Shown here: positions 12,501 to 15,500 of the stretch, in pieces
Layout of the letters: each line of letters begins with the position of its first letter
How positions within the stretch are numbered: position 1 is the first letter of the stretch
NCBI RefSeq assembly: GCF_963676685.1
Contig: NC_092347.1
Span: 48,050,001 to 48,114,000, forward strand
From: Mytilus edulis
Taxonomy: Eukaryota
Direction of reading: 5' to 3'
Length of the DNA: 64,000 bases
Translations under genes and position numbers: made by a program
Notes under the pieces: generated by a model
The model's database searches: none
Seen by the model: the letters and a program-made list of their open reading frames with translations, nothing else
What the model was told of the DNA's origin: nothing

Positions 12501-15500
12501 CTTGATATTTATAATGTGTATGATTTGTTAATTGTGAATCCTGTTGATTGAAAAAGATTATTCATACTTGTAAGATGATTTCCTCACAGTTTGATTAAAG
12601 AAATTAGAATAAATTTATATTAATTTATCACCATGTTCCTTTATAAATACTAATTGTTTATTATATATATTATATATATGCCTTCTTTTATTCCACAGAG
12701 TTCTTAGTCCATTTAGAGCCAATGTCAATTCTTTTCGTAATTGTGAAAATTTGTATATTATTGATATTGTTTTTATGTTAAAACCATATTATAAAATATG
12801 TATCCGTTTTTCTCCTTTTTCTCCATATCTGGCCTTGCCCAAAATCCTCGTCCTGCCCGAAAATATTCGAATTCATCAATGGCCTTGATTGTCCACATCA
12901 ACCCTGACCCATGGATTGTTGGTCTGTCCAGTACAAAGCCAGTGTCACAGTTCCCGATAGCACCAGTCCCGAACGGTATGAACCTCCATATATTTTAAGA
13001 TTTGAAAACTTTGTTTTATTCATAACCCTAGCCATGGGGATATCTCATCCATCATCACTTATCATTTCATTGTATGACCCAGCTAAGATGGTGAATGTGC
13101 CAGGTTTTGAAAATTTATCACAAATTTGATGTAGATAAACATCATTGCACTGTAAGTGTGAGGTAGCAGTAGAGATTAAATTGTTCTTGATTGTTTCAAG
13201 TGAGACTTCTCATTAATTATATAAGTAAATGTTTTTAATCAGCTAGTTTTAATCTTCTGTAAAGTTTTAAAATCAAAGGTTCTGTGATCATGACTTACTT
13301 AATATCAGTATAATATTTACACTAATAATAATAATTTGAAATCAGTTTGAATAAGTTTAATCATATGCAAAAAATAGCTTGCCATTTGTATGTTGAGAAG
13401 TTTCACTTGTAAAATGACAATCTGAGACACCTGGATCCACAGTCACCATTCAGTAACGGGTCTCTAGCATTATACTATCTGCACTGAAATCCTGTGGGTG
13501 TTATCATTTTCTTCTGTATAACTGCTTCATTAATTTATAGAAACATTTTGTCAGTAGGGTTTTACATGTTGTGTTCAAGTAATAGTGGTTTCTTTCTGCT
13601 TCACTAATACACAAAAATGAATAAGAAATGCCATGCTTTCTTGAATGCCAGAATAATATGCTTCATCCTTACTGTCGCTGTGTAAAACAAAAATTTTTTA
13701 AAGGTAAAAAAAATCAGTCTTTATGTTAAAGATGCTCATGCTTATATTCAGAATCCTGTGTTTATTGTTTAAAAGACTTTTTGATAAACTGCTTTAAATG
13801 CCAATTATTAAGAATAATTTACTATTTTATTTGAAAGAATGAAAGTTTTTGCTTGATTAATTTGACTTTTATTTGACTTGTTTACAATTTGTTCTGATTG
13901 TTCCTAATCTTATAATTTGGTGTTGTGACTTTTGACAGAGTGTTAACCATTGGAGCAGAGATTGCTACAGCATTAGAATGTGTGTTAGATATTATTCCTA
14001 AACTGGAAGATGTAAGTACTCATATGTAGATTACACAAATGCAACAAGTGTGTTACAATATTTCACCACTGGAGTCAGTTAAATTTTAATATTTAAAGCA
14101 TGAGGCTTGCCGAGTTATAGTGGTGGAATCTGTTTCTCTAATGATTTTTATCCTTCCTTTTCAAAGATTGAAGAAAGTTGTGTACTTTTTATGTGAGGTC
14201 ATCAGGCATGGTTGTCTTTTTTCATGACGTCACAATAGGAAAACTCATAAGAAACCAACAATTAAATTTCAACCAATCATTTGCCTAGAACAGATTTTTC
14301 ACAAGTGAAGACAAATATTTATCAATCCGATCAATAAATGTGAAAATAGCATAAAATTAGAGAAATATAATTTTATTATCTTGGCTACAAGTTATCAGAT
14401 ATAGTTTTGAAAGGAGAGAAAAAAGTATTACAAGTAGGTGTTGGTCCTTGCATGGTATGAATTTACTGATAGTAAATGGAGAAATGATCGAAAATATATT
14501 TTTTTTCATATTTACTAAGTCTTTTGCTTGCAATTTAGAATAAAGAGCTGACAAAATGAATTGCTTTTAATTATAAGGGTAGTTCACAACTGTAAATTAA
14601 TATTATATATTTAAATGTACATGTGTATTTGTAATGTATTTTAACATTTCAGTATAAGAACTACAAAGATGACAATTTTGATTGTGAACTTAGAATGCTG
14701 GTGCATCAAAGTCAGGCAGGATGTATTATTGGTAGAGCTGGTTTCAAAATTAAAGAACTACGAGAGGTGTGTACATGACTGAAGGAAACACACTTTTCTC
14801 TAGCATAACCTTTTCTGATCAGAATTGGACTGTAAAAATTTATGAATATCAATATGTCTTAAGTGTTCTTATTTTTATACAACCTCAAACATTTTTTTGG
14901 GTTTATAATGGTATGATGTTGTCGTCGGAAGATTTGGTTTCCAGACAATAACTTTAGTTTTAGTGCATGGATCTCTATGAAATTTATAAAACGGTTCAAT
15001 ACCACACAAGGAAGGTTTGGAATGATTTTGAGGGTTATGGTACCAACCTTTTAGGAATAATAGGCCAAAAACAAGCATTTTTGAAGTTTTTGGACAATAA
15101 CTTGTGTGAAAGGGTATGGATCTCTCTGACATCTCTATCATAAAGGGAAGGCTGGGATTTAGTTGGGGGTAACTGTCCCTAACATGCTTAAAAAAGAGGC
15201 CTAACACATGCATTTTTATAAGTTACACTTAAGTGTTGTAGTGTATGGATCTCTCTACAATTGTTCTATAAGGTTCCATATTACAAAGGGAAGGCTGGGA
15301 TAGAGTTTTGGTGTAATTGATCCAAAAGGGGGGGGGGTAAAAAAAGTTTGGGAAGATTTTTTTTCAATTTCAAAATTTTTTGAAAAGTTTCAGAACAAAT
15401 GTTCAATTGCACAATAGATTTGAAAGATCTTGGACCACATTTGGCTTGTGTCAGAAACCTATATTATGTCAAAAATTCAATCACTATCCCAATTCAAACA

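Follow-up and report, generated by a model that had tools for sequence, protein, structure and literature searches.

The 44-nucleotide (nt) KH1 exon of the mussel hnRNP K gene is preceded by a 211-nt stretch without a single AG dinucleotide, and this AG exclusion zone (12719..12929, + strand; positions here and below are those of the window, the whole 64-kb stretch of Mytilus edulis contig NC_092347.1 that was analysed) is a real, deeply conserved splicing element, found from cnidarians to vertebrates. On balance, we favour a reading in which the intron ending in this zone is spliced by way of a distant branch point, and hnRNP K is predicted to bind the C-rich spacer that lies within the zone and to repress its own 44-nt exon. 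A sequence-only reading of the same region had described a C-rich, AG-free element, an unproductive isoform and an upstream AG acting as a decoy acceptor; the first two stand, with the element now seen to be conserved, while the decoy is mostly unsupported, and that reading overlooked both the probable distant branch point, which is the central point, and the unspliced state of the two flanking introns.

The gene model in the window comprises 14 coding exons and yields a protein of 491 amino acids (aa) that matches hnRNP K best and has three KH domains, the second and third separated by a Gly/Arg-rich region; its KH3 exon is 100% identical to Mytilus trossulus hnRNP K-like. An upstream non-coding exon (7287-7330) is apparently spliced to about 9489 (9489-9535; loose contig ends match 7300-7330), so the 'exon 3' of the sequence-only reading counts coding exons only. 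This third coding exon (11917..11973, + strand), placed by the gene model and RNA joints, is a 57-nt KH1 exon equivalent to human c.157-213 with a consensus GTAAG donor, and is followed on the same strand by a 958-nt intron (11974..12931), the 44-nt KH1 exon (12932..12975, equivalent to human c.214-257 and placed by the gene model and an RNA joint) and a 963-nt intron (12976..13938) whose donor, GTATGA, is non-consensus. Skipping the 44-nt exon shifts the frame, as had been claimed, and the gene model then runs into a premature stop at 13999..14001 (+ strand), with nine junctions downstream of it.

The last AGs ahead of the zone lie at 12697, 12699, 12706, 12715 and 12717, and the next is the acceptor AG itself at 12930. 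The run between them, first noticed from the letters alone, proves to exceed every other AG-free run on the + strand of the window (runner-up, 133 nt); its own composition predicts 7.0 AGs where none is seen, GA occurs seven times, and a fraction of 0.0002 of 100,000 mononucleotide shuffles is without AG. The C-richness noted for 12800-12930 is equally borne out: 12800-12929 holds 40 C in 130 nt, a content reached by 2 of the 14,624 intronic 130-nt windows of the gene, both of them here. At the gene's 12 remaining acceptors, the zones measure 13-91 nt and contain 7-22% C, against 211 nt and 31% C at this one. Among the variants listed, none falls within 12608-12931, compared with 22 variant sites, haplotype-linked, in 11974-12607. 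Three other candidates were considered and rejected: that the zone is a repeat (it has one match in its own genome, a count that is a lower bound); that a GC-richer island in the same intron (12280-12450; a single genome match) is a second element, which its many variants and 7-nt insertion speak against; and that the zone holds a conserved RNA structure, which finds no support in the folding z scores of 26 zones (mean 0.16, none of the 26 below -2, mussel -1.14), nor do these scores support a stable hairpin bridging branch and AG.

To recover orthologous loci, we derived from the peptides of 120 homologues a search pattern spanning the 44-nt exon plus the adjoining AG and GT, and applied it to metagenome contigs, which contain animal host DNA. 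The scan returned 101 loci in 26 clusters besides mussel, clusters that are not independent and of which three hold 57 of the 101 loci; the pattern missed Drosophila-type exons (VDD for VPD) and close mussel relatives. Assigned by nearest named protein or identical exon peptide, the loci include a cnidarian (L018, nearest Nematostella), arthropods (L022, L040, L064, L068 and L081) and vertebrates (L024, L031 and L102); two are bivalve-like (L015 and L033, nearest Sinanodonta), and the remaining loci are invertebrates. An upstream AG is reached at 95 loci, six ending before any AG, and 94 of the 95 have an AG-free zone of 118-396 nt (median 188), a length not imposed by the search, whose pattern constrained nothing beyond the exon with its flanking AG and GT. 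At neighbouring acceptors of these loci, the AG-free zones measure 11-91 nt. Over the last 115 nt before the exon in 26 clusters (mussel included, the too-short L083 left out), the 110 AGs expected are all missing (0 seen), and GA is counted 149 times for 110 expected. The C-rich tract, which the sequence-only reading had proposed comparing in other animals, is thus conserved, an AG-free C-rich zone being kept across the orthologues. The lone exception, the hnRNP K-like locus L083, has a zone of 43 nt in the AT-rich, 45-nt intron that precedes its 44-nt exon, and seems to represent a compact-genome lineage without the element. Two hnRNP K-like exon types, in the L004/L039 and L005/L014 clusters, have C-rich AG-free zones of their own with different sequence and are possibly paralogues; at another locus, L009, the AG-free zone (312 nt) takes up nearly the whole of a 332-nt intron.

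The orthologues share a layout: an A/U-rich branch candidate, a U-rich tract, a C-rich spacer, the AG, the 44-nt exon and a non-consensus donor. The U-rich tract lies 121-360 nt upstream of the exon in 24 of 26 clusters, and in 19 of these 24 a branch-like word, defined by a loose motif with no control, lies at most 32 nt before it. The local acceptors score poorly, at a median of -0.8 where the 33 training acceptors reach 4.6, and the mussel acceptor, at 4.4, is the highest of 27 clusters; none of 102 donors of the 44-nt exon reads GTRAG, against 33 of 34 donors of the preceding exon. Apart from this non-consensus donor, the first 120 nt of the downstream intron showed no evident motif common to the orthologues. 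Local alignments of the mussel zone to the orthologues beat shuffles in about ten of 25, which we do not count as sequence homology because shuffling destroys the AT-to-U-to-C order.

In the mussel, the displaced polypyrimidine tract (12807..12824, + strand; -125 to -108) stands mid-zone, whereas in many orthologues it is near the 5' end of the zone. Directly 5' of it, at about -140, lies a candidate distant branch region (12790..12797, + strand) that aligns locally to the vertebrate branch region; we place the putative branch here because the A-run and tract at 12790-12824 resemble those of the vertebrate locus L024. The candidate word departs from the YTRAY consensus, and a CTGAC at -28 (12904..12908, + strand; A at -25) is an alternative, a possible conventional branch site. 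Since this CTGAC is accompanied by the best-scoring local acceptor of the 27 clusters, the mussel intron may instead branch normally. Downstream of the tract, the zone ends in the C-rich spacer (12825..12929, + strand), with the words GCCCA (12837), GCCCG (12855), GGCC and TGTCC, and is the predicted hnRNP K binding region.

That prediction draws on GCCCA, a published hnRNP K motif (PMC11269977), which occurs 20 times in the spacers where 4.8 are expected, a fourfold excess reached by 0 of 300 dinucleotide shuffles, and is present in 17 of 26 clusters; GCCC occurs 66 times against 31 expected, above all 300 shuffles, and in 24 of 26. The binding motif of the gene's product is therefore enriched near the 44-nt exon over the 26 clusters taken together, with one copy in the mussel, whose spacer has only one GCCCA and one GCCCG. 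For CACGC, the other RBNS motif, and for two degenerate C patterns, the spacers of the 26 clusters show no enrichment. GTCC and GGCC are also enriched, as might be expected if the same distant-branch layout served another regulator, whether PCBP/hnRNP E, PTB on the U-rich tract or a general intron-detention signal, and the control were cross-regulation. PCBP proteins have similar C-rich motifs and can oppose hnRNP K on the same exons (PMC13751310), and all distant-branch exons tested in Gooding 2006 (PMC1431707) were PTB-regulated. We nevertheless regard a different regulator as unlikely: CCCC and TCCC are depleted in the spacers and CCCNNCCC-like spacing is at chance, against the fourfold enrichment of GCCCA, and it is hnRNP K's own gene that carries the element.

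Two unproductive RNA forms are present in mussel contigs. The evidence comes from five contig runs chosen for holding the stretch around the 44-nt exon, which we treat as RNA because GT..AG exon joints are present, with normal exon joints in all five; contig depth cannot rank parts of the gene, and a gap in cover proves nothing by itself. No run listed as containing the stretch is recorded as RNA, and three raw-read runs labelled miRNA-Seq (X22-X24) contributed 0, 5 and 6 reads, too few to bear on splicing. In all five of these selected runs, both introns flanking the 44-nt exon are covered and their exon-intron boundaries bridged. Cover over the unique sequence in introns 2 and 6 is zero or close to it, and intron 1 has low depth in run X4 and partial cover in X3; introns 5 and 6 hold repeats that attract foreign contigs. 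In X4, depth, a poor measure, is 181-392 over the two flanking introns, 15 over intron 1 and about 1-2 over introns 2 and 6. The second form is the frameshifting skip joint, 11973>13939, which the sequence-only reading had suggested looking for: it is found in one of the five runs (X12, at depth 366, with inclusion joints at 1242 and 1117) and is absent from the other four, and its product carries the stop at 13999 ahead of nine later junctions. The downstream intron (12976-13938), in addition to being unspliced in contigs, has few variants.

Under the favoured reading, the branch and U-rich tract would lie 110-140 nt upstream of the exon in mussel and about 250 nt in vertebrates, and the zone would tolerate no AG because the spliceosome would have to travel from the distal branch to the first AG downstream of it. 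Weak on both sides, with a distal-branch acceptor and a non-consensus donor, the 44-nt exon would be slow to splice; abundant hnRNP K, predicted to coat the spacer, would then cause both flanking introns to be kept or the exon to be skipped, and the skipped RNA, with its frameshift and early stop, would be an NMD substrate. We infer that autoregulation by hnRNP K is likely and the best account of the element. Whether it occurs was raised as an unanswered question in 2021 (PMC8423707), and in 2026 one group, whose HNRNPK overexpression had failed, suspected it (PMC13108870); no paper in the literature searched, which included few subscription papers, shows HNRNPK regulating itself through splicing of the 44-nt exon. 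Counting against autoregulation, Pervouchine 2019, whose input included HNRNPK data sets, makes no mention of HNRNPK in the portions of its main text available.

A slow site without feedback would also leave unspliced RNA. If the distant branch simply delays splicing constitutively, the retained and skipped forms are by-products, and unspliced flanking introns are what a slow step should produce; Taggart 2017 (PMC5378181) proposes distal branch sites as a holding state that delays splicing. Delay, however, leaves unexplained why a C-rich, GCCCA-enriched spacer and a non-consensus donor persist from cnidarians to vertebrates, and we consider this explanation improbable.

For the human gene, lariat ends have been published. 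HNRNPK intron 5 and the c.214-257 exon are the orthologous intron and 44-nt exon, with lariat ends 218-270 nt upstream in the published data available: the host intron spans chr9:83,975,506-83,976,994 and the next donor is 83,975,461 (PMC10405568), positions from which the exon measures 44 nt, matching c.214-257. Among the lariat junctions listed in that paper, those other than the whole-intron circle start at 83,975,723, with the main one at 83,975,758, and lie at about -218 to -253. Among the rows listed in Table S1 of Taggart 2017 (PMC5378181), in a look-up that left out positions -80 to -179, lariat ends fall at -230 to -270 before the human exon, three of them labelled distal. The sequence context of these distal ends matches the vertebrate locus L024 at the same distance, and on L024 the main lariat position corresponds to the final A in a run of A's immediately preceding the pyrimidine tract, a tract at about -245 in human against -125 in mussel. 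Because the lariat ends of Table S1 coincide with T or C, the human branch nucleotide is uncertain; deletion of distal branch sites had only modest effects in three other genes, according to the same paper. Strong conservation across both flanking introns is a further likeness between human intron 5 and the present element (PMC10405568, PMC5378181), while the available parts of these two papers describe no AG exclusion zone, GCCCA spacer, invertebrate conservation or exon skipping. The mechanism class and the human distal branch, present in published tables, are thus already known; the mussel window adds the mussel RNA forms, the decoy test and the motif statistics.

The human lariat also raises the question of whether it is itself the selected product, acting on the gene or sequestering the protein, with the distant branch existing to make it. 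sisHNRNPK is the most abundant stable lariat in the study of PMC10405568, and its authors hypothesise that it acts in autoregulation. The mapped circle does not include the C-rich spacer, though, which belongs to the tail 3' of the branch, and the mussel contigs bridge all four exon-intron boundaries and therefore represent unspliced RNA, not only lariats; we think it quite improbable that the lariat is what selection has kept.

Variants in Au-Kline syndrome bear on the human zone. Three have been reported: c.214-6A>G, with a published RNA effect (PMC13494470), and c.214-35A>G and c.214-77G>A, the RNA effect of c.214-35 being stated as unpublished (PMC9606382). Each creates an AG when placed on L024, where the reference bases match, as would 106 of 798 possible changes; c.214-6 is an ordinary acceptor variant, and -35 and -77 are the informative ones. 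HNRNPK is dosage-sensitive, haploinsufficiency causing Au-Kline syndrome, and the zone therefore predicts both sites of deep-intronic disease variants and where an oligonucleotide might raise expression. The ultraconserved elements uc.263 and uc.264, which we take to be located in HNRNPK, play no role in this argument.

Distant-branch control of a small frameshifting exon in the gene of an RNA-binding protein has a precedent in PTBP1 exon 11, where, according to Gooding 2006 (PMC1431707), the branch is at -351, the AGEZ is about 380 nt and skipping leads to NMD. Gooding 2006 looked for AG exclusion zones of at least 100-150 nt directly before an exon; the mussel zone has 211 nt and those of 94 of 95 orthologues at least 118 nt. 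The hnRNP K element resembles PTBP1 exon 11 in its long zone and in a spacer predicted to be bound by the protein that the gene encodes; a putative branch and U-rich tract near the 5' end of the zone would be a further likeness in many orthologues, the mussel tract being mid-zone. It differs, as far as the available text of Gooding 2006 goes, in a spacer that is C-rich with GCCCA rather than CU-rich, in having both flanking introns apparently unspliced, in a conservation that reaches cnidarians and arthropods where Gooding mentions Fugu for PTB, and in the status of autoregulation, which is demonstrated for PTB and inferred for hnRNP K. Retention of both flanking introns recalls a second kind of system. 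FUS reportedly regulates itself by retention of the two introns flanking one exon. As there, and as in the detained introns of PMC4281565 (available part), two adjacent introns of an RNA-binding protein gene are unspliced and others removed; the likeness comes from the unspliced contigs, and the definition of detained introns, unlike the hnRNP K element, involves no distant branch point.

The element singles out one exon, one cis region and a set of RNA products behind a possible hnRNP K feedback, and its spread from cnidarians to vertebrates would place it among the oldest known intronic splicing-control layouts. A bolder synthesis, which we advance tentatively and rate somewhat short of even, is that hnRNP K has set its own level since before the cnidarian/bilaterian split through GCCCA words, where it is predicted to bind, between a distant branch and the acceptor of the 44-nt exon; that the architecture has been kept rather than alignable sequence; that retention of both introns is the main output; and that Au-Kline AG-gain variants, like splice-switching oligonucleotides that raise HNRNPK, have an unrecognised target in the entire 250-nt human zone.

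The upstream AG singled out by the sequence-only reading remains to be placed. With TACTAAT, a (TA)n run and a short pyrimidine run before it (12648..12698, + strand), AG 12697 was proposed as a decoy acceptor, and the gene model upholds the frame of that proposal: a splice 11973>12699 would read S-S-stop. No such joint is listed in any of the five contig runs, however, and the listed contig pieces cross 12699 unbroken in all five; we accordingly take AG 12697 as the AG that merely bounds the zone. The contrast drawn with a productive acceptor of poor pyrimidine tract is weaker than claimed: on a simple weight matrix the productive acceptor scores 4.4, no worse than the 4.1 of the supposed decoy. 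A strong acceptor at the 5' edge of the zone is not a general feature either, one in the top tenth being present in 4 of the 19 orthologue clusters with enough upstream sequence (p 0.11; six had too little). That AG 12697 nonetheless competes as a decoy, leading to an immediate stop or holding the spliceosome without ligation, is very improbable: it is the best-scoring cryptic AG of its intron, has a near-consensus branch word 44 nt upstream and lies in the stretch without variants among those listed, and its product could be hidden by NMD or contig simplification or, if non-ligating, leave no joint, yet 17 of 823 intronic AGs of the gene score as high, and the skip, no less prone to NMD, did turn up once. 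This AG might conceivably act in a lineage-specific way or without ligation, given that the invariant stretch includes it and that the loci contain no mussel, oyster or scallop.

Elsewhere in the gene, the Gly/Met/Arg-rich region between KH2 and KH3 (17869-21462) is encoded by four exons and is unusually long, at about 220 aa, and dispersed and tandem repeats at 14090-14350, 14940-15700 and 3700-4700, in or before the gene, draw contigs from other loci.
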